A stretch of DNA of 32,902 nt from positions 1-32,902 of the forward strand of contig LXFE01000323.1 of NCBI GenBank assembly GCA_001929475.1. Direction: 5' to 3'. The position numbers were made by a program, and so were the translations under genes. This DNA comes from Neolecta irregularis DAH-3. Taxonomy: Eukaryota. Of this stretch, positions 327 through 27,999 are shown one piece after another; within the stretch, counting starts at the first letter, position 1, and every line of letters starts with the position of its first letter. A model generated the notes under the pieces. That model saw only the letters and a list, made by a program, of their open reading frames with translations. It was not told the DNA's origin and made no database searches.

Positions 327-1880
327 ATGTCGCGCTTCCCGCTGCTGAAGCACAATGACATCGTCCAGTGCATGCGCGACATGGGCATTCCCTTTTCAGA
401 AGAAGACCTTGCAAAACCTTCCGCCGGGCGCATGCAGGCCGTCTACGAGCAGTTTGCCGAATTGTTCATGGGCCTGTTTACCGGCGAGTTCGACTCGGCC
501 ATACAGAAATGCGGCGAGATACTCGAATACCCAGTACAAACCACCCTCCGCACGGCTGACATCCAGCTAGTCCACTGCGCGTCCATTGGCCTGATGGCCT
601 TCCACCAGCACCTGTACGCCTCCCCGCAAAACACACTGCTCACACCAGCGTGCAACTCATGAACCAAGTAGGCATTCTCGACTTTTCGATACGCGACCTC
701 CTCAAACCCGAGCCGGGCAGAGTAAAACGAATCCTTTCCGGCGTCATCAATTTTGCCAAATTCAGAGAAGAACAGCTCGAGACGTATGAAGAGCTGTCCA
801 AACAATCAGTATGCTTGAAACAGAATGATCTCACACGCAGGAAAACTACCTCAGAGCCCACGGTGAGCTCTCAGAGCGCAATCTCGACTTTATGCACCAA
901 ATAACCGGCATCAAACAGCAGCGAGAGGAGGAAGAACCCTACGCCCGGCAGGTCAAGGAGGCCAACAAGCTGCTTACCCAAAAACTCTACCAACTCAAAT
1001 CCACGCAGTCCAAAATCCAAGAACAAACAGATCGGCTCAAACGCGAAAGAAACGTGTTGCAAGAGAAAATCGTTCGCCCCTCGTTTATCTTGTTCTCACT
1101 TGCAGAAAAACACCTCGTTGAGTTTGAGCAATACTAAAAGGGAAGTCGAGCAAATTCATCTCCGAATCGTTCCTGCCCCTGAGAAATTACGGCAAGCAGT
1201 CATAGACATGTCTGAAAGCCTGATGAGCGACAAAAATGCTATATCAAACCTCGAGAAAAGACTTCGAGATCTCCAAATGAAAGCAGACGTTCTTGTCCAA
1301 CTGGAACAGGTTGGTTTTAAATGTATCCTATTGACTCGACTAGGATTTAATATCTTCATTGAAAGCAATGGAGGAATGTGAAACAGAAGTCATTCGCGTC
1401 GAAGAAGCCTTCAAGAAAGAAACCCGACACCGCGAAATGGTAGACCAGAAAGAAATCGAAGTACGGGAATATACTGTCAAAGAAACTGTACACTGTTACC
1501 AATCCGAGTCTAATATATTTAGCAACTCCACCGACAGCTAGTTCATGCAGAAGAGAAACTCGTTCGAGTCCAGAAACAAGCCGAACAAAAACGCCAAACA
1601 GCTCAACTACGAATGGAAGATATCCGTAAAGAATACGAGTCAATGACCAAGGAACGCGCTGCTCGCTCCCGTGAAATGGACTTGAAAAAGGCAAGCATCG
1701 AACGGACTGAGAAAAAGGTTTAGACTAATTCCATGTCTTTATTAAATCATTTAGATCGCCGATCTTGTAGAAAACGTGGCCCAGGAAACACAGGTCGTAG
1801 AAACCGAATGGGCCAAATTGAACAGCCATATCGAACTTTACATGGATGAAATGCGTCAATGCATGGCTATCGCTGGATAA
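327..1880 (+). CDS. NUF2: Kinetochore Ndc80-complex subunit Nuf2 (multi-exon)
   Basis: N-terminal FPLL..DIVQCMRDMGIPFSEEDLAKP and DFSIRDLLKPEPGRVKRILSGVINFAKFRE match the Nuf2 CH domain, followed by a coiled coil. Introns at 534-566, ~613-648, 809-840, 1072-1105, 1310-1343, 1488-1522 and ~1718-1754 give a continuous frame ending ...YMDEMRQCMAIAG* (TAA 1878-1880). Confidence 0.93.
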
Positions 1881-1890
1881 ATGGGTTTAT

Positions 1891-2625
1891 TTACAGTGGT
1901 TTATTAGTAATAGTAATATCTATACATTTATTTTCTTGTTCTTTCCATTGCACCAGGCTCTTGTGTCCCATACTAGACCATTCGCCCTCGCCAACACCAA
2001 CCGTCCAAAATGATTTCATCCAACGAGCATAACATTTATCAATTCCAATAGCTTGCGACTCTCCCAGAAATTCTGTCTCATTCAAAATACCAATAAACTC
2101 GTCTTCACTCTTCGAGTCTCCGATAATTAAACGGCCATTATTGCAAGCATCAAGTGCACTCGCCAAAGTTCTTCCCAAGCCTTGCGCAGAATATCGTTCA
2201 CCTAGTCTATGCATTTCAGTAAACCCCCAAATGGCAAGAAACGTCTTTTGTTCCATTCGTACAATTGACAGGAACGCGGATAGTTGAGGTAATGACGTGA
2301 CGTGAACAATAGACAACTGTCTGGATGCAGCTTGCCATATACTACTCGCGGTCTCGAGACTACTCAGAAATGACGATATCACGGATCCCTCTGCATTTAT
2401 ATCGTTCTGAAGAGCGTTGTTAATAGAGTGTTGACGGGAAGAACTGCAGATTACTAAAATGGAATTTTCACGAGGTTTGTGTAAACGATGATAATTGAGT
2501 AGAAATAGCAAGACTGAAGCGACAGAAGGCGAAGTTATCAGCAAAGGAAATAAATCGAGGTTGACATGGCTAGTTTGAGACGGGTGTTCAGGACACAGTA
2601 AAAGCTCAATTGGAGGTTGAAACAT
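1891..2625 (-). CDS. Putative divergent Rad51-paralog-like Shu-complex subunit (S. pombe Rdl1/SWSAP1-like)
   Basis: Uninterrupted ORF, first in-frame ATG at 2625. Motifs LSIVHVTSLPQLSAFLS, LAIWGFTEMH, YSAQGLGRTLASAL and FLG...YARW resemble, from memory, fission-yeast Rdl1 and an uncharacterised filamentous-ascomycete family. The start is uncertain. Confidence 0.5.
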   Translation of the reverse strand: MFQPPIELLLCPEHPSQTSHVNLDLFPLLITSPSVASVLLFLLNYHRLHKPRENSILVICSSSRQHSINNALQNDINAEGSVISSFLSSLETASSIWQAASRQLSIVHVTSLPQLSAFLSIVRMEQKTFLAIWGFTEMHRLGERYSAQGLGRTLASALDACNNGRLIIGDSKSEDEFIGILNETEFLGESQAIGIDKCYARWMKSFWTVGVGEGEWSSMGHKSLVQWKEQENKCIDITITNKPL

Positions 2626-2835
2626 AAGCAGCACGAATGAATCGGTACATCGCAATATCAATAATTCACAAGATACATCGCGATCAAACGGACCAGAGAA
2701 TGTAATAAATGTATGTCATTAACGGACAGTAACTAAGCCTAGATCGCTGACATTAACCATGTCGATGGATAACAAGAAAATAAAAACTCTGCTGACTTGC
2801 TCGGCCGGTCGAATAGGACCGCCATGAAATCCCCC

Positions 2836-3429
2836 CTATTGCTGATATCCGGAGCCGGGGAGAGGAAAACAATCATATCCAGCAAGTGAAGCTCCCCCGG
2901 AGCAGTATTCCAACCAAGCCTGAGTAGCGGGATACGAATAGTATGCTGCCCAATAATCGACTAGAATATCAGAAATTTCACTCGCGAAAGGATTGGCCTG
3001 CCTTTTGTAGTATCAAGGACAAACGGGCACTCAGGCTGGCAGCCAAGATTTATCGCTGCAGGGGTTGCCTCATACCCATCAGGGGTATACGCAGTATTAC
3101 AACCTTGCCGAGAAACGGTACCATATATAGGGCTGCCAAGCAAACCAGAGTTGCAATAAGCCAACCCATAAGCCGAGAGATTTTGCCTTGCGAGCTGGGA
3201 GATACTCGTCGCGGCTAAACCATCAGAACTGCCCTTGAAAATGCGGCCAACAATTTACGCCGATTTGATCTCCCCCACAACCCGGATGGGCCTGCACTTT
3301 GCAGCTAAATGTGATCACATTTTTGCTGCCCCCATGTGGATTGGCAGCAATTTTGGACTCTCCAAGATCGGTAGTATCAGCAAGGGTCGCAGTCAAAACT
3401 GTCGCATAGGCGAAGAGAATGAATTTCAT
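2836..3429 (-). CDS. Small secreted Cys-rich protein, paralog A (171 aa, 8 Cys, two degenerate LysM-like modules)
   Basis: Exons 3429-3252, 3214-3002 and 2960-2836. Introns are 37 nt GT-AG and 41 nt GC-AG, both phase 1. Signal peptide MKFILFAYATVLTATLA. Module 1: GCGGDQIGVNSATSISQLARQNLSAYGLAYCNSGL. Module 2: CQPECPFVLDTTKVDYWAAYYSYPATQAWLEYCSGGASLAGYDCFPLP. TATAAAAA lies 38 nt upstream. Confidence 0.75.
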
Positions 3430-3460
3430 GATAGGCGAAGATATCAGCCGGTGCAAATCG

Positions 3461-3850
3461 CCTGCCTTTTTATATTTCACAAACGGCATTTGAGACTGCC
3501 ATAGACCTTGGGGAAGACTTTGCCGAGAGCTCTTTAGTCATTCTCTTCATCGCTAAATTGGTCAAAAACTGAACAACATACCCAACAAAAGCGGCCTGAG
3601 AGAAAGGAAATTGGGCGTCCTCTTCCAAGCTCACACAGGACTCGCTCGTCTGCAGTTTCACTTTATTCCACAATTTTTGTACAGACTTGCAGATATCAAA
3701 AGTCAAAATCAAGATTGTACTTGTCACCTATGACATCGAAATTCAAGGGATGAAGAACTAGGGTTTTGACTTGTCTCGAGCTTTGGCCATTTTTAAATAT
3801 ATCTTACACGTTGCAACGCGAGTTGAAAACATTTTACTAGTGCAAGCTTA
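3461..3850 (-). promoter_or_regulatory. Promoter of paralog A (TATA at 3467-3474), duplicated at 6374-6590
   Basis: The 21-mer CCTGCCTTTTTATATTTCACA is identical at 3461-3481 and 6374-6394, with similarity continuing to ~3525/6443. A second block at 3734-3850 aligns with 6474-6590. Copy A has ~170 extra bp between the blocks. Confidence 0.85.
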
Positions 3851-4089
3851 CGCTTTGTAAGAAGAGCAAAATCTCTTATAAAGCATATTGTATGAAAGAA
3901 TCTCATCTTCAAGTCCTTGTTTTACACCCAAGAGCATCTGAAAATTCACTGTTCTCTCCTGCGTAACGCGACTAACCGCGTGTTTCCCGATGACATTAAC
4001 TAACCTTGAAAATAACAAGTCTGATTAACCTAGTATTGGCGCAGGTTATTTCAGCATCGGATTACAAATATCGGGAATATCATTCGGTA

Positions 4090-4760
4090 TAGAATCTAGG
4101 GATCCGGTCTTGTAATTCCAAGATAGAAATTCATTTCATGATCGGTAGACCCGGTAATTCAAATCCACGCGAAATGTAGTATACGAAACGTAAAGTACTT
4201 TACCATTCACAACCACTGCTCCTCCACCTTGATAATTTATTTTGTTCACTTTATATCCTAACTCATCCTCCACAAATAGGATGTTGGCGTCTATATTGGC
4301 TCGGGAATTATCAATATACACAAGCTAAATCACTTGGAGTGAGAAACTCAATATGTAGCCATTACAAATACTTGGAATGGATCCTCTAATATCTTTGTTC
4401 TTCTAGAAACTTGGAATTTCAAAGCTAGAGTGTTAGAATCATGTAAGCTATTTGGTACTTCAGATAGCGAAATCTAGTTCTTCCTGTGAACCTCCGTACA
4501 TACGAAGCCAATATGTACGTTAGTTGTCCATATCATCGATATCAACATCCACATCTGCATGCAAGCTCTTTGCTTTATCCCTTGGCAATGTCGTCCTCTA
4601 TTTCTCCCAACCAATCTGTGTTTCTAGGTAACTCTTCATATTCAGGAGAATGATGTCTGATTGGTGGAAGCTTGCGAAACTTGATTGGCTTGATACACAA
4701 ACGAGGACAGTCTACGTATTCATCAAGGGCTTGGCGTAGTTGATCTACCAGTTGGGGGAT
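4090..4760 (-). pseudogene. Degraded coding relic, possibly retrotransposon (retropepsin-like) derived
   Basis: Protein-like fragments separated by stops: QLVDQLRQALDEYVDC...GEIEDDIAKG*, and LYIDNSRANIDANILFVEDELG...VVVNGKVLYVSYTTFRVDL. The latter is loosely patterned like an LTR-element aspartyl protease but lacks an intact DSG/DTG. Confidence 0.25.
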
Positions 4761-4939
4761 CTGGACTGAGACTGCTGACTATTTGAATCGACATATTATA
4801 CACCTGGATCGCCAACGAGACAATCCAAAGCGCAGAAAAGCTCTAAACAAAATCGGAGACTCGCAGGTTTGAGCAAGATGTATTAAAACAACGACTGAGG
4901 CTATTCGAGCTTGGTAGCATAGTCGTGTCAGTTGCCTTA

Positions 4940-5460
4940 ACAGGAGAGAAGACATTAAAAAACACTGGTAATGCAGCGGCAGCTAGTTCGAGATGAGAAG
5001 ATAATCTTTTGTAGACGGTCGTTTACTACAATCCACGATTTTAAGCGGGTTGAAAATAGCTAGAAATATTAGAAATTCTCGGTTAGCAAGGAAAGGTCTA
5101 CCCCGGCCGGCGGATTGTAGTATTTTGGGCAACTACCCGTGCAATCTGACGGTAAATCGTCCCCGGGGCTCCATTGGAGGGGAGCTTCCAACCGGTGGGA
5201 GTACAAGCAAAGGGTAAGTCAATTCAACTATAACCGGGTCCGCCGAAGGTGCAAGAGTAGCGGTGCTATATAAAATGTGGTATTGGTCAGCGACGGCCTG
5301 CAAATTCTTTCCGAATGAGGGCGGGCGAGTGTAAATAGGATTAAAGAGCGTTATTGGATGACCGACCGTGATAGGCGTGGACAAAAAAAGAGCGTGGTTT
5401 TGATCACGTGCACCACAAACACCTTTCGAAATGCTGTTGCAATCAGGGCGGCTCCGCAAT
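4940..5460 (-). pseudogene. Pseudogenised third copy (C) of the secreted LysM-like family
   Basis: Fragments GKNLQAVADQYHI, LPFACTP (cf. PYACTP in B), DCTGSCPKYY (cf. QCPQGCPLFF) and PSTKDYL...YQCF (cf. PATQAWL...YDCF in A). A 42-nt intron at 5101-5060 ends ATTTCTAATATTTCTAG, like the second introns of A and B. Frameshifts and in-frame TGA/TAG are present; no signal peptide or conserved promoter was found. Confidence 0.7.
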
Positions 5461-5681
5461 AGAAGGGCAGGCTACGGACAAACCACCACTGGGCCAAGTC
5501 AATGATCAAAGGTTTGGGATAAACATATGTCATATTAAACTCGAATATACAGACCGGACACCTACAATCCGGATATATATCTAAGAACGAACTGCCGCGA
5601 CGTGGGATATCTCGATAAATAACGGACAACAGAAGCTACTCAGCATTGCTCGATTGGCACACAGCCGACAACGAAGACCCT

Positions 5682-6348
5682 TTAATAACAATATTGAGGG
5701 ACCGCAATGCAGACGTTTGTCCCGAGATTGTAAACTTGATCATAAGGGGGCTGTCTTCGGAGGCAATCGTCAGTATTCGAAAAGATCTTGGTGATGTCGG
5801 TAACACCATCTAGAAATATCAGAAATGCTCGTTCTGCAAGTACGAGCATACCGGCTTTGAAGAATAACGGGCATCCTTGGGGACATTGATTGGAATCTTG
5901 TGGGCCTGAACTACCACTACCACCACCCGAAGCAGACGGGGTGCAAGCATATGGGCAATTATAGCGGTTAATGCTACCATTCCCGTACCCGTCGAACAGG
6001 CCATAGTTGCAATACTCGAGGTCGGTCTGAGACACCTGGTTATATTGCGCTAGCTCCGCGAAACTCCCTGCTCCTAAAATCGTCAGAAACCACCCTTTAA
6101 GAATTTTTCTTACCGTTTACATACACAGTAGGTCCCCGGCAAGTTCGGGGGCAATTGCAATTCCCTTGGGTTTGAATCAGGCTACTACCAAGGTTATCAG
6201 GACTGGCGCTGGACCCGCTCGTGGGAGTGAACTTGTCGGACTGAACGGTGGCGGCCGGATTATCGACCACGCTCTGGGGAGAGCTCTGGGAGGAATCCAG
6301 GCTGGCTGCAGCCGACAACGTTGCAAAGGCGAAGACGATGAATTGCAT
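5682..6348 (-). CDS. Small secreted Cys-rich protein, paralog B (194 aa, 11 Cys, Ser-rich spacer, two degenerate LysM-like modules)
   Basis: Exons 6348-6114, 6073-5852 and 5809-5682. Introns are 40 and 42 nt GT-AG, phase 1. Signal peptide MQFIVFAFATLSAAA. Module 1: CRGPTVYVNGAGSFAELAQYNQVSQTDLEYCNYGL. Gly/Ser linker. Module 2: CPQGCPLFFKADGVTDITKIF...YNLGTNVCIAVP. Confidence 0.8.
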
Positions 6349-6373
6349 GTTGATGAGGATCGACTGCCAAGGG

Positions 6374-6590
6374 CCTGCCTTTTTATATTTCACAGTCGGC
6401 ATCTCAGACTGCCGAATAAGACCTTCGGGAGGACTTTTTGCCGGAAAGTTTTGCTACCTGTACGCTAAAACATCATCGAAATTCAAGCGGGAAACCTAGG
6501 GCTTTGACTCGTCGAGAGCTTGGCCAAGTTTAAATATAACTTTCTCTCGACGCATGCCGTGATTGAAAGCATTTTCACGAGTCCAAGCGT
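6374..6590 (-). promoter_or_regulatory. Promoter of paralog B (TATA at 6380-6387)
   Basis: Direct-repeat homology to 3461-3525 and 3734-3850; TATAAAAA lies 32 nt upstream of ATG 6348. Confidence 0.85.
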
Positions 6591-7165
6591 AGGTTTGGGT
6601 TAGCAGTGCGTGTCTATCAAAGCTAAATAAGAAGTCTGAACAATCAGGTTTTCCACATAACACGCCCGTCTCGGGACATACGGGTTCTTGCAGGTCGCGC
6701 TAAGACGTTGGAGTAGGTTTGAAACTGATATCGTATTTAAAGCCTTGATAGACAATCAGAACAAAGACCTTGAGCAGTTTTGACTTGTTATTCAACCGCT
6801 TTCATGTTCTATCCACAAAATACAAATTATAAAGAACAGGGAAAGAGAAGAATGCGAAAAGTTCTCTGAGAAAACAGGGATGTTCTAGAAGAGCAGGACC
6901 CTGCCTAGGGCCAATGTGGAGCTAATTTCGGGTTGGCTTTTGTTCGAATGTTATCCCGTCATTTCCTTAACGTCTCGATCAACATGAACAAGACGCGTTC
7001 AGCCCAAACGAGCAGAAAGCTTGTCCCAATAGCTTCGCAGATCTACCACCATAGCCCCCTCGAACTGGGAATATGATTGGTTGCCTTGCGGGTGTAACTT
7101 TTGACTTTTCTCATTTTCGCTCTCTTTTTCTTTTCTACCCCAGAAAGATATATATATAGACAATC

Positions 7166-8450
7166 CTAGATTCCCAATGCAAGCTTCATACGCTCGTATA
7201 CCAGAAAGGAACACGACACCATTGGTATAATCTAATATTAGCATATTTGACAGTATTCCCAACAAGACCTTCACATATCCAATCGACAAACCCACAAAGA
7301 ATCCTCGAAACCCCCTTCCAAACCAAATTTTCTGGGCGGTCTCCCACATTCCCGTGAATCTTTGCTCTCCTTTCGCTCCTGCAACCTGCATCCGCCGTCG
7401 AATGACTTCTAGGGGATAACTGGCTGTTTGCGACATCAAAGCTGCAAATCCTCCCGCTGTCAGTTCAGACCAGACCTTTAATGGAGCTCGTGTCGCTTTA
7501 TTTGACGGGTCCATCAAAGTATATTGCCGAAGTATTGGTGATCGGAACAAATCTCCAATGAAGTCATGTACCCAAAATGAAACACCGGCATAGGGTAGCA
7601 TGCCCACCAGCGTAGGTGTGAATCCACGGTAAAAATTGCTTATCCCTCTGAAAGAGAGCGGTAGCCGACTACATAACGTTGCCGGAGTAACCGTCAAGGA
7701 TGCTCGTGCCAAAGTAGTATTCGCTGACTCAATGAGACTTGGTTTACGCGTATAATAAATCGGGTTATGACCTCGTTCATGATATATTTGCCAGCAAGTG
7801 TTTGTAAAAGTTATTCGATAATTTTTCCGTGTCTCAAATGCCAATCTCACCCTTACAACCTCCAAGGGATATGTGAATATGACCGAGGTAACACCTACCT
7901 GATTATCACCGAGCGTCCTGAACTAACGGTGAAAATCTACCTGCGAGAGAGCCAGCCATGAAGCGTCTCCAACCTTGGTCCAACCGTTTATTCGGAATGA
8001 GGAGATGTCGATATTGCTCATATGCAATGAATTTGATAGCGGCGTAGGGAAAGATCCGAAGCAATGTAGCTGAATGGCCTTGATATAATCCCCAAACACC
8101 ATCTTGTCGATAAATTGCCTTCGTTGCGTATATCGCACCGGCCCAGCTACCTGCATACTTTGCAAAGTGTGGATTGGATGTCTGGAACAATATCTTTATT
8201 CGATCGAGGGGCGCAATCAAGGTCTTCGCCTGCCTTTTTAGATCAATTTAAAGGAAGAAAGTACGGTGCATCCAGCTAACCCGCCTGCCAATCCAGTTCT
8301 CACAACATAATCTAGACTCTGGGGGTCTGGTTTTCCAACAGCCACAAGATTTCCTTGGGGTAGTATTTCATCATTTATCGCTGGATCGCACGAGAGTACA
8401 TCGTTGCTCTGTTTGACTAGTTCCTCGTTTTCATAGCCGGAAATCAGCAT
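7166..8450 (-). CDS. LEU5: Mitochondrial carrier, Leu5/CoA-transporter type (multi-exon)
   Basis: Three carrier repeats with PX(D/E)XX(K/R) signatures (APLDRIK, YPLEVVR, YPLEVIR). Subfamily motifs [17 protein letters not shown] and [23 protein letters not shown]. Spliced C-terminus ...[14 protein letters not shown] (stop 7166-7168). Confidence 0.88.
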
Positions 8451-8603: not shown

Positions 8604-10898
8604 TCAAATAACTCGAGTTTCTCGTTCAAGCCAAGCCAATGCTTGGGGATTTCCTTTCAAGAAAGATTTAGTTTTTTCCAACACTTGTTTGTGATAGGCA
8701 TTCAACCAATGGATATCGTCATTTGTTAACATCGACTTCTCAATCAAGTTGCTAGCGAAGGGGCACTGTGATAATAAGCATATCCAAAATATTTGAAAAC
8801 ACACACCATGGTAATGGTTTCAAATCCAAAATAAGAGCGGTCCCCAAATCGATGTTGGGTCTCCACTTCCTTTACAATAACCAAATTTTCCAGTCTAATG
8901 CCAAACTTGCCATCTTCGTAATAGCCCGGCTCTATTCTAGATAAGACCAATAATGTTTTATTCACGTACCGTTAGAGAGGACCATACCGGCATCCAGGGC
9001 AACTTCGGAAAATGCAAGCCTAGTACCAATCCCTGCTGGTCCCTCGTGGACATTCAGAAAGGCACCAACACCGTGTCCCGTTCCATGTCGATAATCTAAA
9101 CCTTGAATCCAAAGATGTTGACGAGCTAAAACATCAATAGCAAATCCAGTTGTGCCCTTTGGAAAAACTGCGCGAGCAAGCGAGATGTGACCTTTGAGGA
9201 CGAGGGTATAAGCTTCCTTCTCGAAAGCGTTCGGAGTTCTGTGGTGAACAGTACGAGTGACATCTGTTGTTCCATCCCTTCATCAGTAGAAGAAAATTGG
9301 GACTGTACCGATACTGAGCCCCAGAGTCACATAGATATATTGCGGATGGATCAACGACAGCGCAAGAACCTTTCTCTGGTTGATAATGAATAATGGCACC
9401 ATTCGGTCCAGTTGAAGAGATTGTAGGGAAAGATAAGCCTGCATAATTTTCTTTACCCCTTGGGATGAGCCAAAGGAACTGGAAAGCATACGCACTTTCG
9501 AATCTGTTCCAACTTGTCGGATACATCAACTTCATCCAACGAAGAACCATCTTTTAAGCTATCTTCAAGCCATGCGAAGTATTCGATGAGTGAGGCTCCA
9601 TCTCGAATATGACATTTCCTCATTCCATCCAATTCAACATCGTTTTTCACAGCTTTCGCCATCTGGATCGGACTTTGAATCTCTTCAACGTTATTCTGAC
9701 CAAGAGCATTGACAAGAGCCCAAGAAGCTGTCTTGGCAACGAGAATTTTCTTCTTCGCCTCTAGAGTTTTAGAGAGAATGGTTGAATCTGCAAAAATGGC
9801 ATAGAAAGGCGCAATTTTCACGTGGTCCCCAAGGTGCTTCTTGATTCCATCGTTGAGTTGAGATTCATGAATATAGAGAGTGGTGTTTGTCATCGTGACA
9901 AGTGCATAGGAAAAGAACACCGGATTATAAGGAATATCATCCCCTCGAAGATTGAAAAGCCCTAGTCCATGAGATACATATTCTCATCACACGTACAAGC
10001 AATCTCATCAAGGGCAGATACTACAAAACCTTCAGCAGATCTTTTTTCAATTGCTTTCCGAAGCTCGAGGAGCTTATCGGCGACTGATTTTCCTCGTCCT
10101 GTCAGCACCAAACAGGATGCCATCATGATACCTGTATACTTGGTTTCCAATACAAAGACAGGCCTAGTTGGTCGAGCTGGTCGCTGTTTGGCCCAAACAT
10201 CATCAATCAAATTGCAATCCATAGGGACAAGTTTAGCTTCGCTCTGGCTTTGAAGATCATCTTGTAATTTCTTCGCTTGAGCTTGAAAATCAACCGCATG
10301 TGCAGAGAGAGATCGTACAAAATGTAAGCAGAGTCGCGTCAACTCCAACAGACTTTCCGGACTTTGCCTCTGCTATGGTCCATTCTTGCCAGCTTAAAAC
10401 ATCCGGTAAACCATATTTCATTAAAGTCCAGTTACTATCGAGCTAGATATCAATAAATGCGTCACACTATAGCTCTAATACTTGCTTCCCTGCTTGATTG
10501 AAATAACGCCCGTCGGTAAATAAAGCAGCCTTGGTTTCGGTAATGACTGCACAGCCTGCCGATCCAGTGAAACCTTTGATATAAGTCAAGCACCATAGGC
10601 AAATTAATACCGCTGATATATGCCCGTCTCGCGTCAGCGGGACAAGTGTATTCGCTCTGGTGGGAATCTTCAGAAGGTACGACTTTTCAACTCAGCAGTA
10701 ATAAGAGACAACGAAAACCGCACCATAAAGTTGGATATTGCATTTCCGCATCAACGTACGCAAACTAGAAAGTCGCTCAGTGGTATTTGTTGCACTTGCA
10801 GCTTGATCCATTGGTCGAGCAGTATAGTAATTATGCTTATTGGAGGAGAATGGCTTAATTAGACGTCGCAGCATTCCCCTCAACTGCATAATTATCAT
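8604..10898 (-). CDS. Xaa-Pro aminopeptidase P (M24B, XPNPEP1/AMPP1/Fra1 type), multi-exon
   Basis: SEY....DARRA N-terminal motif, [80 protein letters not shown] and WLNAYH. Candidate starts at 10898, 10889, 10874 or 10811. Confidence 0.93.
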
Positions 10899-13194: not shown

Positions 13195-14296
13195 ATGGCC
13201 TCTATCGATTTGCAAACCCTGAATCACTTCGAGTTTGATAGAATTTTAAATGACGGCAACACTATTGTCTTCTAGGACACAAATTGACAGTTGAAGATCC
13301 TCGCACAAAATCTATTACATTACTTGGAAATTTGAAATCACAACGCGCTATAGTAACGCTGGAAAAGACCCCATTCCCTTATGATAACCCTGAAAACATT
13401 CTGGATGAGTCTTCGCTTCGATCAATTGTCCTTGGATTCAGTAACGATGTCTATTCATGGTATCATGGCTTTGCAAAGTCAACGTCACCAGCGTTCAAAA
13501 TCAATATAATTTGGCCTACTACTGAAGCTGTACAATTATTTACCCAGATATTGAGCCCTAAATCTTAAAGCATATTAGGAAATACTCCAAACAAAGTTTT
13601 CGTATGGTGACAGAGACGCCAGAAATCTACAAAACCTTGGTCGAGCCGTACATTGATGCGGTAAGTGCTAATAGATGTCAATGGTGTTTATGAGTTTCTC
13701 CGAGGACGACTGACGAGAAGGGTTTACAATATCTTGAATCACACCACTGAGTCAGATCGCATTGTCTATGAAAATCCGGATGTTCTTACTGGCTACATTG
13801 TGCTTCCCGATCTGTATCCTCTTATTGCGCCATCACAGCTAATATTCAGTAAATGGGATGGAAAGATGGTTTCATCGCTATATCTCTGTGCCATCTTTCA
13901 TAGAAAGGATCTTCGGTCGATTCGAGATCTGACGACGGACCATATAATGCTGTTGAAAGATTTCCGAGAAAGCATTTTGTATGAGATACCCAAGAAATAC
14001 CATATCGATAGCAATCAGCTGAGAATATACTTTCACTGTACGTCATCTATATCTTTATATACGATCCAATTAACGAGGCAGATCATCCGTCTTACTACCA
14101 TTTGCATGTTCATATCGCTCATGTATCATACGATGGCAGTTTTGGGTCGGTCGCGGGAAAAGCAATTCTAATCGAAGAAGTAATTGAGAGACTGCAAGAA
14201 TGTCCCACGGGAACTGGATATTCTTCAAAGACCTTGACATTTTCTATCGGAGAAGAGTCTGATATCTGGAAGAATATTTTCGCAAGGTTGACTTAG
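13195..14296 (+). CDS. DCS1: m7GpppX diphosphatase (scavenger decapping enzyme DcpS, HIT family)
   Basis: FEFDRILND-DPRTK, NDVYSWY, IWPTTE.HIRKYSKQ, VTETPEIY, WVYNIL, VLPDLKWDG, SIRDL and the HIT motif YFHYHPSYYHLHVH after splicing. The first intron (13256-13296) is GC-AG. Confidence 0.93.
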
Positions 14297-14648
14297 AATT
14301 GCCGTGCAACAGACTTGCGCGAGCTTCACTATTATGTCACTATACGTCGGAAAAGAATATGTCGGAGGCTATCTCATGCTTACCAATATTCTTTGAAAAG
14401 ACAATCGTACTGCGATACTTCAATTCACATAATGTCAGTATTCATCATTCTACCTCGCTTTTTTTGTTATCGTTCTTTAGTCCTCATTGTATCTTTCTTC
14501 TTGCATCCCTGTTAATCCATATCAACGCCTTTCCTGGCCCTATTTTTCCTGGGCATCTCCACATTTCAAATAAAACTAACTTCAAGTGACGGAAGTGCTC
14601 GCGAAGTCAAGAATGTCGACAATCTCCTTGGACAAGTATTTGGAGCAG

Positions 14649-15384
14649 CAATGTTGTGGATGGTCCATGGGCTTTTTCACGTGACACATTGATTAAATGC
14701 CAACCACCACCATGCCACCAAATGTGTCGCCCACTCGCTTCCTCTCACTAGTCACTCCCCTGACCATCACCTCGCTCTACCAATGCCCTATGCCCTTGTC
14801 CCACTGCCTCGCAGCCTTTGTCAACCGCCTTTTGCTGCAGAAAGTGCACAACCTACACAGACCCGGCTATCCTGCCAGCCTACTCAAACTCCACTCCCTC
14901 CCGTCTCTCCCTCCCGTCCCTCCTGCCTTGCCCGCCTGTCCCTCCCATCCTGCCTGTCCCTCCTATCTCACGTGCCTTGCCTGCCTGTCCCACCTGCCTG
15001 TCTCTCCCATCTCGTTCTCCGTCTCCCCGCCCATCCCGCCCATCTCGCCTGCCTCACTCGCCTTGCCTGCCCGTCTCTCTCGCCTCTCCCACCCGTCTCG
15101 CATCCCTCTCGCGCTTCTCCTGCTCACCTGACTTGATTACCTCAACCGCCCTTTCTGCCTCACGCGCCAATCTCTCCCGCCTCGCTCGCCTGCTTGGCCT
15201 GTCTTGCCCACCCGCCTGTCAGTTCCCTTGCCAATCTTTAGATAGATATAAAGAATTATATACATAATATAGCAATTTATACTTGAATTTTAACATATTC
15301 CTGCCCTGCACGCCACCACCCAAATCTGTTGTCACGTGTTAGGCCCGGCCGTCCATGAAAAAGCTCATGGCATCCATAACACTG
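14649..15384. mobile_element. Non-autonomous DNA transposon (MITE-like), probably hAT family, 736 bp
   Basis: Left end CAATGTTGTGGATGGTCCATGGGCTTTTTCAC versus the reverse complement of the right end CAGTGTTATGGATG--CCATGAGCTTTTTCAT. Inner inverted CACGTGACA at 14678 / TGTCACGTG at ~15330. Flanking 8-mers TGGAGCAG (14641-14648) and CGAAACAG (15385-15392) differ only by transitions. No transposase. Confidence 0.75.
14870..15232 (+). repeat. Pyrimidine-rich degenerate tandem repeats inside the element (CTCGCCTGC/CCCGCCTGTC-like)
   Basis: The + strand is strongly C/T-skewed, with recurring CCTGCCTGTC, CTCGCC, CTTGCC and CTCACC variants. Confidence 0.85.
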
Positions 15385-16016
15385 CGAAACAGCGAGGAGA
15401 TCGCAGGGAACGAGATCCGAGCATGTCGTACAGTAATACGAAACCTACTGCAAGCCGTCTACGATTATTATCAGCCAAAGGGCAATACTTCTGATCATCA
15501 TTAAACTCTATGCTGCTGACCTCCTCAAGAAAATTGAAAAGCTTTATGATGATAATATTCCGACCGACAACCTAGTCAACCTGAACGGAAGCGCGGAGGA
15601 TGTCCAGAGGTATGCTGATTCTGTCTATTAATCCAAATTGCTATATAAATACAAGCTGCTATCTTTGTGGATGCTTTGACTTTTCTTTGAATGCTTCAGA
15701 ACCGAAGGAATAGACAGACGCTTTCCCACTGGAACACGTCAGTGAGGGATAAGTATTGCCTCGAAGCGTTCTCGCCAGGGTTATGTCCTACAAGGATCCC
15801 GGACAAAGTAGATTCTCTATAGTACATCAAATCCGAGGACTTGTTATCAAACACCAATTGTTGATTAGATAGACCGGAATCAGAGGTTATAGGTCACGAG
15901 CCTCTGACTTTGCAACAATTGATTATTGTTAGTCGCTGCACCTTCTCGAATTGCTCCTTACTCTTGCTTTGGCCTAAACACTACTCTCAGTCGGTCGCAT
16001 AGGATTACGAGACTCA

Positions 16017-25665: not shown

Positions 25666-26190
25666 GATTGCTTGGAGTAGAGGGTAGCGGAGTGGTTTAC
25701 GCCAAGCTTGCTAATTAGCGGCCTTTGGGTATAAAACGCTGTGGCTAGATCGCGTTTTGAAGGAGTGACTTTTGACCAGTGAGTCTTTTTCTCGTTCTAT
25801 ATGTCTGAGACAAGTATTTGCCGGCCCCAGTCTTGCGCGGGTGATGTCCATTTGCCGAGATGCCGTTTGGCTGAGCAGGCAAAACGGGCAGAGTCGGCAG
25901 ATGTACTGTCTGTGCTTTAATGTACTTGCGGTAGCGTACTTTGTGTATGTATTGTATTATGCTGGGATGGCTGCTGTAAACACTGCCATGCCGCTGCTCC
26001 TTTTTCTTGCTGCAACCTCCAAGACTATCTTGCAGACTTGTTGCAGACGTCGTGCAGGCTGTTGCAGACGTATCGCAGACTGAATTTATTTCAGCCGCAT
26101 CAGGCGATTTGCAAAAAAGAGGGCGCGCTCCACCTGAAACCGGCTCGTGGATGAGCCTCGCGGGATCCGCCAAACCCTAAAACTCTTTAA

Positions 26191-27999
<1,809 letters not shown>

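Follow-up and report, generated by a model that had tools for sequence, protein, structure and literature searches.

A tandem, lineage-restricted gene pair in Neolecta irregularis for predicted secreted cysteine-rich proteins, possibly of a degenerate LysM type

The gene pair and its paralogy

The window analysed here is the whole 32,902-bp contig LXFE01000323.1 of Neolecta irregularis DAH-3 (Taphrinomycotina). Its minus strand carries two three-exon genes, here called gene A and gene B (Table 1), which form a tandem, lineage-restricted pair and encode predicted secreted, cysteine-rich proteins that are possibly degenerate members of the LysM type. Both models had been proposed from the bare sequence of the contig (the original prediction); when spliced by coordinates, they were reproduced exactly and are open throughout, with 171 amino acids (aa) in gene A and 194 aa in gene B. 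The pair had also been described as hidden. This applies to gene A, which appears to be missing from the annotation, but not to gene B, because its model is identical, letter for letter, to residues 19-212 of the 212-aa hypothetical protein NEOLI_001644 in GenBank. The GenBank model has the same splice sites and a start 18 codons further upstream; the record holds neither a domain nor a function, and no mention of the locus tag was found in the literature searched. The genome paper (PMC5309816) reports 5,546 gene models with support by RNA sequencing (RNA-seq) for 99.4% of them; the presence of gene B among these models counts in favour of the interpretation proposed below.

Genes A and B are true paralogues, as documented by their signal-peptide regions, the first of their two modules, the positions and phases of their introns, and a 49-nucleotide (nt) block upstream of both. 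Local alignment scores were compared, region by region, with those of 2000 shuffles. None of the shuffles reached the score of the signal-peptide regions (47 vs. 17+-3.6) or that of module 1 (91 vs. 25+-5); the scores of the second modules (26 vs. 23+-4; reached by 422 of 2000 shuffles) and the third exons (18 vs. 19+-4; reached by 1264 of 2000) were not above chance. An internal repeat, seen between module 2 of A and module 1 of B, was marginal (79 of 2000 shuffles). Across the whole proteins, BLASTP returned an alignment of 124 columns with 29% identity (E=2e-8). A third copy of either gene was not detected by tblastn within the contig, where the best other match had an E value of 0.25.

The gene structures agree in the way that had been proposed, with two phase-1 introns at equivalent positions: the introns are aligned in the DNA alignment of the locus, and the cumulative exon lengths (178 and 391 in gene A, 235 and 457 in gene B) place all four in phase 1. 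Measured from the motif C...CP, the site of intron 2 differs by two codons between the genes. Of the two residue patterns initially ascribed to both proteins, VN.A.S...LA....S...L.YCN.GL fits protein A as written, and fits protein B only if a residue is inserted between LA and S; the other is not contiguous but resolves into the motifs C...CP and L....C..[LV]P, which are 34-35 residues apart in both proteins. Synonymous sites of module 1 are saturated (proportion of synonymous differences, pS, 0.73 vs. 0.43 for nonsynonymous differences, pN), which marks the duplication as old and constrained.

Table 1. Coordinates of the gene pair, its upstream blocks and the flanking genes in the 32,902-bp window
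Feature	Position	Strand	Details
Gene A	2836-3429	-	exons 3429-3252, 3214-3002, 2960-2836; 171 aa; predicted splicing
Gene A intron 1	3251-3215	-	37 nt, GTTGGC..TAG
Gene A intron 2	3001-2961	-	41 nt, GCAGGC..TAG (GC-AG intron)
Gene A proximal upstream block	3452-3500	-	core TGTGAAATATAAAAAGGCAGGC at 3460-3481; TATAAAAAG begins 45 nt before ATG 3429
Gene A distal upstream block	3725-3830	-	81% mean column identity with 6455-6560
Gene B (NEOLI_001644)	5682-6348	-	exons 6348-6114, 6073-5852, 5809-5682; 194 aa from ATG 6348; spliced by coordinates
Gene B intron 1	6113-6074	-	40 nt, GTAAGA..TAG
Gene B intron 2	5851-5810	-	42 nt, GTATGC..TAG
N-terminal extension of the GenBank model	6349-6402	-	18 codons, ATG 6402; protein start MPTVKYKKAG...
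Gene B proximal upstream block	6365-6413	-	core at 6373-6394; TATAAAAAG begins 39 nt before ATG 6348
Gene B distal upstream block	6455-6560	-	pairs with 3725-3830 in the locus alignment
Flank, one side			Nuf2-like open reading frame (ORF) and a 274-aa ORF of no Pfam family
Flank, other side			mitochondrial carrier and Xaa-Pro aminopeptidase P; an ORF with an RsfS domain is also among the flanking genes

Splice sites and functional state of gene A

The donor sites of the pair were compared with a reference set of ten introns mapped from the annotated Xaa-Pro aminopeptidase P of the same contig, supplemented by the two introns of gene B. In the aminopeptidase P gene (8766-10723, minus strand, start at 10889), each of these ten introns is 35-41 nt long. 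Their donors invariably read GTRY (GTAY or GTGY; purine at +3, pyrimidine at +4), and their acceptors are mostly AAG or TAG; both donors of gene B begin with GTA. Measured against the ten reference donors, those of gene A (GTTGGC and GCAGGC) are atypical. An ab initio harvest of introns was too noisy for donor statistics, with 22 GT candidates vs. 19 with GC, 21 with GA, and 24 with AT. The sizes of the introns in both genes (37-42 nt) fit those of the reference introns and the genome average of 42 bp, which is given in a supplementary table of the genome paper together with a density of 4.3 introns per gene (PMC5309816).

Gene A might therefore be a decaying or dead copy, mis-spliced through degenerated donors, with gene B as the sole functional member of the pair. 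Its reading frame depends on GTTGGC and on the GC-AG donor GCAGGC, both unlike the donors of the reference introns and of gene B, and the better-looking donor GTAAAT at 3258 would shift the frame if joined to the same acceptor and delete nine conserved residues if joined to CAG at 3195. In addition, exon 2 of gene A was not recovered from any annotated protein: a HMMER profile search of 1.84 billion representatives returned only NEOLI_001644, and a word search restricted to lengths of 124-2000 aa gave no match. Other observations speak against decay. The three exons of gene A are open in homologous frames despite the saturated synonymous divergence, the eight cysteine positions that gene A has in common with gene B are kept, and both upstream blocks as well as both branch-point and acceptor segments are still conserved. 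Moreover, the donor in AAG/GCAGGC is tolerable for a GC-AG intron, and the comparison of donors is based on only 12 reference introns. On balance, we lean towards a gene A that is functional at present, and regard its death as a possibility that deserves to be taken seriously.

Predicted features of the encoded proteins

The N-termini of both proteins are hydrophobic, with a mean Kyte-Doolittle value of 1.6 over residues 2-16. The proposal of a shared signal peptide thus holds for the similarity of the two regions, and their identity as signal peptides is a judgement by hydrophobicity only. Cleavage after approximately residue 17 would yield mature parts of 154 aa in protein A and 177 aa in protein B. 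A glycosylphosphatidylinositol (GPI) anchor is not expected because the C-terminus lacks a hydrophobic tail. Judging from these features of their sequences, proteins A and B are probably secreted.

Protein A contains 8 cysteines and protein B contains 11, with eight positions common to both. Together with a similarity between A and B that is above chance and the probable secretion, this bears out the original prediction of a tandem family of secreted, cysteine-rich proteins. Serine, threonine, glycine, and proline together make up 35-37% of the residues, and both proteins carry a net acidic charge. Their architecture consists of the signal region, a linker (long and serine-rich in B), module 1, a Gly/Ser-rich or short linker, and module 2. 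Module 1 is characterized in both proteins by the motif C-x7-VN-x(20-21)-YCN-x17-C.

The pair appears to be private to Neolecta. Profile searches yielded no homologues among PDB sequences (E<=10) and only the query itself among 1.84 billion representative proteins, and none were found in the metagenome contigs scanned. Pfam detected neither a catalytic nor any other domain in the exon translations and NEOLI_001644, and in the literature searched, the papers that name Neolecta and LysM together do not deal with this gene.

Several known families were considered and rejected. Hydrophobins, CFEM proteins, and hevein/CBM18 proteins do not agree with the spacing of the cysteines (CC pairs, in the case of hydrophobins, are lacking), and none of them emerged from Pfam. 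The match of NEOLI_001644 to DUF7458 (E 0.24; 12.3 bits vs. a cut-off of 27 bits) is noise.

Is module 1 of the LysM type?

The interpretation of module 1 as a strongly degenerate LysM is based on three leads. The first is its register in profile comparisons with hhalign, for which the template consisted of eight LysM domains of Escherichia coli K-12 found with PF01476 (curated cut-off 20.9 bits) and was therefore shallow and exclusively bacterial. P values were 0.012 for the pair of first modules (A1+B1), 0.25 for the pair of second modules, and 0.11 both for all four modules and for the whole-protein profile. The register of module 1 was constant and ungapped over 25 residues and fits the spacing of LysM, with V, S(T), F/I(L), L(I), A, S, L, and a conserved Asn at LysM positions. 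Both proteins carry this Asn in module 1 (as YCN), and module 2 has no counterpart at that place; the conserved Asn of LysM domains is discussed in a review (PMC4392113).

The other two leads come from language-model features and predicted structures. When the ESM Atlas was searched by features with residues 80-212 of NEOLI_001644, all named neighbour clusters were LysM (scores of 0.85-0.79); in the search by structure, LysM accounted for 8 of 10 rows at template-modelling (TM) scores of 0.32-0.37, with a predicted local distance difference test (pLDDT) value of 0.46 for the Atlas model. AlphaFold2, run on a two-row alignment, placed a strand (residues 92-94) and two helices (residues 101-107 and 112-118) over module 1 in a model with a mean pLDDT of 34.5. 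With this model, 5 of 9 Foldseek rows (E<=10) were LysM/CBM50, all of them weak (E 3.8-9.1).

Other results weigh against this interpretation. Among the six exon translations and the full NEOLI_001644, Pfam reported no LysM at E<=10. A hidden Markov model (HMM) of the E. coli LysM domains gave 0.5 bits on protein B and no match on protein A, and the hhalign probabilities, obtained with the shallow bacterial template, were only 0.2-3.6%. The published search string of the fungal-specific LysM class (c[^c]{8,13}c[^c]{15,17}n[^c]{6}c[^c]{8,10}; PMC4392113) found no match in protein A or protein B. The hallmark positions of LysM comprise the conserved Asn at the end of helix 2 and a GD(T/S) turn after strand 1; in the hhalign register, the place of this turn is taken by AGS in B and by ATS in A, with loss of the G-D. 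The absence of the canonical GDTxxxIA and WNP elements, which the original prediction had already pointed out, was thus borne out for the GDT and WNP hallmarks, and the assignment to LysM that it had made nonetheless did not fare well in the Pfam search, in the weak hhalign comparisons, or against the fungal cysteine string.

The leads themselves are correlated and fragile. The Atlas scores lie below 0.9 and reflect 131 shared features vs. 170 typical of true members, values that fit chance as well, and exon 2 of gene A alone led to unnamed Atlas clusters and not to LysM. The AlphaFold2 model computed from the single sequence also had a mean pLDDT of 34.5, which makes both models unusable for a fold call, and Foldseek returned 0 rows at E<=10 for it. 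Finally, module 2 does not significantly resemble module 1 or LysM, nor do the second modules of proteins A and B significantly resemble each other.

Proteins A and B may be orphan secreted, cysteine-rich proteins with another or new small disulphide-rich fold and a role apart from the binding of N-acetylglucosamine (GlcNAc) glycans, such as a structural or surface function in the wall of the fruiting body. Every test that provides a statistic (Pfam, HMM, and hhalign) fails to support LysM, the fungal cysteine signature is missing from both proteins, the Atlas lead was not repeated with exon 2 of gene A nor the Foldseek lead with the second model, and a homologue was not found among the 1.84 billion representatives. 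A role in fruiting bodies would also agree with the origin of the RNA used for the annotation, since both DNA and RNA were sequenced from Neolecta fruiting bodies according to the genome paper (PMC5309816). By contrast, the three indicators, weak and correlated as they are, favour LysM over any other family, and the spacing of hydrophobic residues, Ser, and Asn in module 1 matches LysM without gaps over 25 residues. The net acidic charge speaks against the role of a cationic antimicrobial peptide. Such an orphan fold is a serious contender, albeit one that falls somewhat short of being probable. The same can be said of a LysM-type module 1, which we propose tentatively; for module 2, a LysM-type fold is unlikely. 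The LysM reading of the two proteins is a reasonable hypothesis that was confirmed by none of the tests run.

Conserved upstream blocks and the translation start

Genes A and B share two blocks of conserved sequence upstream of their coding regions. The proximal block of 49 nt, which is 86% identical between the genes, is the sole direct repeat detected in the region 1800-7200; the distal blocks comprise approximately 100 nt and are separated from the proximal ones by about 200 nt of extra sequence in gene A relative to gene B. The proximal block includes a perfect, TATA-containing core of 22 nt (TGTGAAATATAAAAAGGCAGGC), which occurs in exactly two copies in the window and in 0 of 100 shuffles. 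Because this core is perfect while the coding regions have diverged to saturation at synonymous sites, it probably represents, with its TATAAAAAG, a dedicated promoter element. A third exact copy of AAAAAGGCAGGC at 8228-8239 (minus strand) is judged to be a coincidence; it is located at the likely 3' end of a 35-nt intron and the start of the following exon in the mitochondrial carrier gene.

The N-terminal extension of NEOLI_001644 overlaps the conserved core, and the GenBank start codon (ATG 6402) lies 6 nt upstream of it. Gene A has the same in-frame upstream ATG at 3489. Translation might start at this conserved codon in both paralogues, and the hydrophobic stretch, then located 19-21 residues from the N-terminus, would be a signal anchor or part of a signal peptide with a long n-region. 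Such a start is the choice of the GenBank annotators; the ATG is in frame and not followed by stops in both genes, and the leaders of A and B differ in length by 6 nt, which preserves the frame. Moreover, TATAAAAAG precedes the downstream ATGs by just 39-45 nt, so that a start at the latter would leave a very short 5' untranslated region (UTR).

The pattern of conservation points in the other direction. Of the first 30 nt after the upstream ATG, 28 are identical between A and B, including all ten third codon positions; because the synonymous sites elsewhere are saturated, this region appears to be constrained at the level of the DNA and not of the protein. The conservation also extends for approximately 35 nt upstream of the upstream ATG, which likewise argues for a promoter or leader. 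In addition, both downstream ATGs have an A at position -3, the upstream ATGs a C or G. The extension at 6349-6402 is thus probably a promoter or 5' leader and not coding, and the GenBank start of NEOLI_001644 is probably over-extended, in which case the annotated extension would be artefactual and would conceal the signal peptide. We favour the downstream start (6348 in gene B), as in the original prediction, with reasonable but far from full confidence, and consider translation from the upstream ATG rather doubtful.

Genomic context

The pair had been described as situated between housekeeping genes, and this is apt to the extent that the flanking genes are ordinary ones (Nuf2, mitochondrial carrier, and aminopeptidase P). 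Gene A is directly adjoined by an open frame of 274 codons (1891-2715, minus strand) that Pfam assigned to no family (E<=0.01). The spacer of 2.2 kb between the paralogues (3500-5600) has a lower G+C content, with values of 0.39-0.40 around 3500-5000. No family was assigned by Pfam to the two ORFs in the spacer, and neither a repeat nor a match to Rfam was found in it; the Rfam search of the entire window was also without a match. Among two compositional outliers elsewhere in the window (14000-15500 and 26000-27000), one combines a GC skew of down to -0.39 with a G+C content of 0.53, and the other has a G+C content of 0.59, against a background of 0.38-0.47.

Proposed function and implications

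The interpretation that we propose combines these observations into a single scheme. Genes A and B would be two anciently duplicated, co-regulated genes specific to Neolecta that encode small acidic proteins. The proteins would enter the secretory pathway through their N-terminal hydrophobic signal and fold into two disulphide-stabilised modules of approximately 50 residues each, connected by linkers rich in Ser, Gly, and Thr. Module 1 would be a strongly degenerate glycan-binding module of the LysM type (beta-alpha-alpha-beta) that has lost the GDT turn. Outside of the cell, the proteins may act as lectin-like binders of a glycan in the wall or in the environment, be it chitin or another ligand. 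Gene B would be the working copy; gene A has an open frame and a conserved promoter but weak donors, and its activity is uncertain. As a whole, this scheme of a co-regulated, Neolecta-specific pair of secreted, lectin-like binders with degenerate LysM is offered tentatively. Its firm parts are the gene structures, the paralogy, the shared promoter blocks, and the lack of detectable relatives, which the analysis showed directly; secretion, disulphides, the LysM-like fold, and the binding of glycans are inferred.

A more far-reaching version of this scheme is conceivable but unlikely. It would see the pair as a private, ancient family of Neolecta in which LysM has been reshaped to a point where sequence profiles no longer recognise it (by loss of the GDT, placement of a Cys beside the Asn, and new disulphides), in which this module is coupled to a second one and the ligand is something other than chitin oligomers, and in which a dedicated promoter with an invariant core of 22 nt serves a programme that is possibly connected to fruiting bodies or root association.

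Should module 1 indeed prove to be a remodelled LysM, the range of sequences known for a glycan-binding fold in wide use would become broader. The pair would also represent LysM-like secreted proteins in a subphylum in which Taphrina, along with Protomyces, has been reported to have no LysM effector-like proteins (bioRxiv 10.1101/2021.09.16.460675), and would help to explain how the wall is built or shielded in Neolecta, an enigmatic multicellular fungus related to the fission yeasts. If module 1 is not a LysM, the genes would add one more pair to the many orphan cysteine-rich secreted proteins of fungal genomes. Two consequences concern the annotation: the signal peptide of NEOLI_001644 is probably obscured by the choice of start in GenBank, so that secretome screens may miss this protein, and the second copy of the family, gene A, appears to be absent from it.

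Comparison with known systems

With generic small secreted cysteine-rich proteins (SSCPs) and candidate effectors of fungi, proteins A and B share a length of <200 aa, an apparent signal peptide, at least four cysteines, a restriction to one lineage, and a tandem duplication; SSCPs are grouped by description and do not constitute a family, and membership in this class gives no mechanism.

A fungal-specific class of LysM, represented by Tal6, has four conserved cysteines (Akcapinar et al. 2015, PMC4392113). Proteins A and B resemble this class in the presence of cysteines in and around the module and in a cysteine-containing N-terminal extension that precedes the first strand. They differ from it in that the conserved Asn is directly preceded by a Cys (YCN) and that 17 residues separate this motif from the next Cys.

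A further parallel is provided by the LysM domain (PF01476, CBM50) and the secreted LysM effectors of fungi, such as Ecp6, Slp1, and Mg3LysM (PMC4392113). In contrast to LysM proteins, A and B fail the Pfam model and the profile comparisons, are without the GDT turn, and have a second module for which LysM finds no support. Like the effectors, however, both proteins are small, predicted to be secreted, and devoid of a catalytic domain, and consist of two modules of approximately 50 aa with linkers between them. The likeness to LysM itself extends to the spacing of hydrophobic residues, Ser, and Asn in module 1, to the beta-alpha-alpha pattern in the low-confidence model, and to the LysM clusters that are the nearest language-model neighbours.

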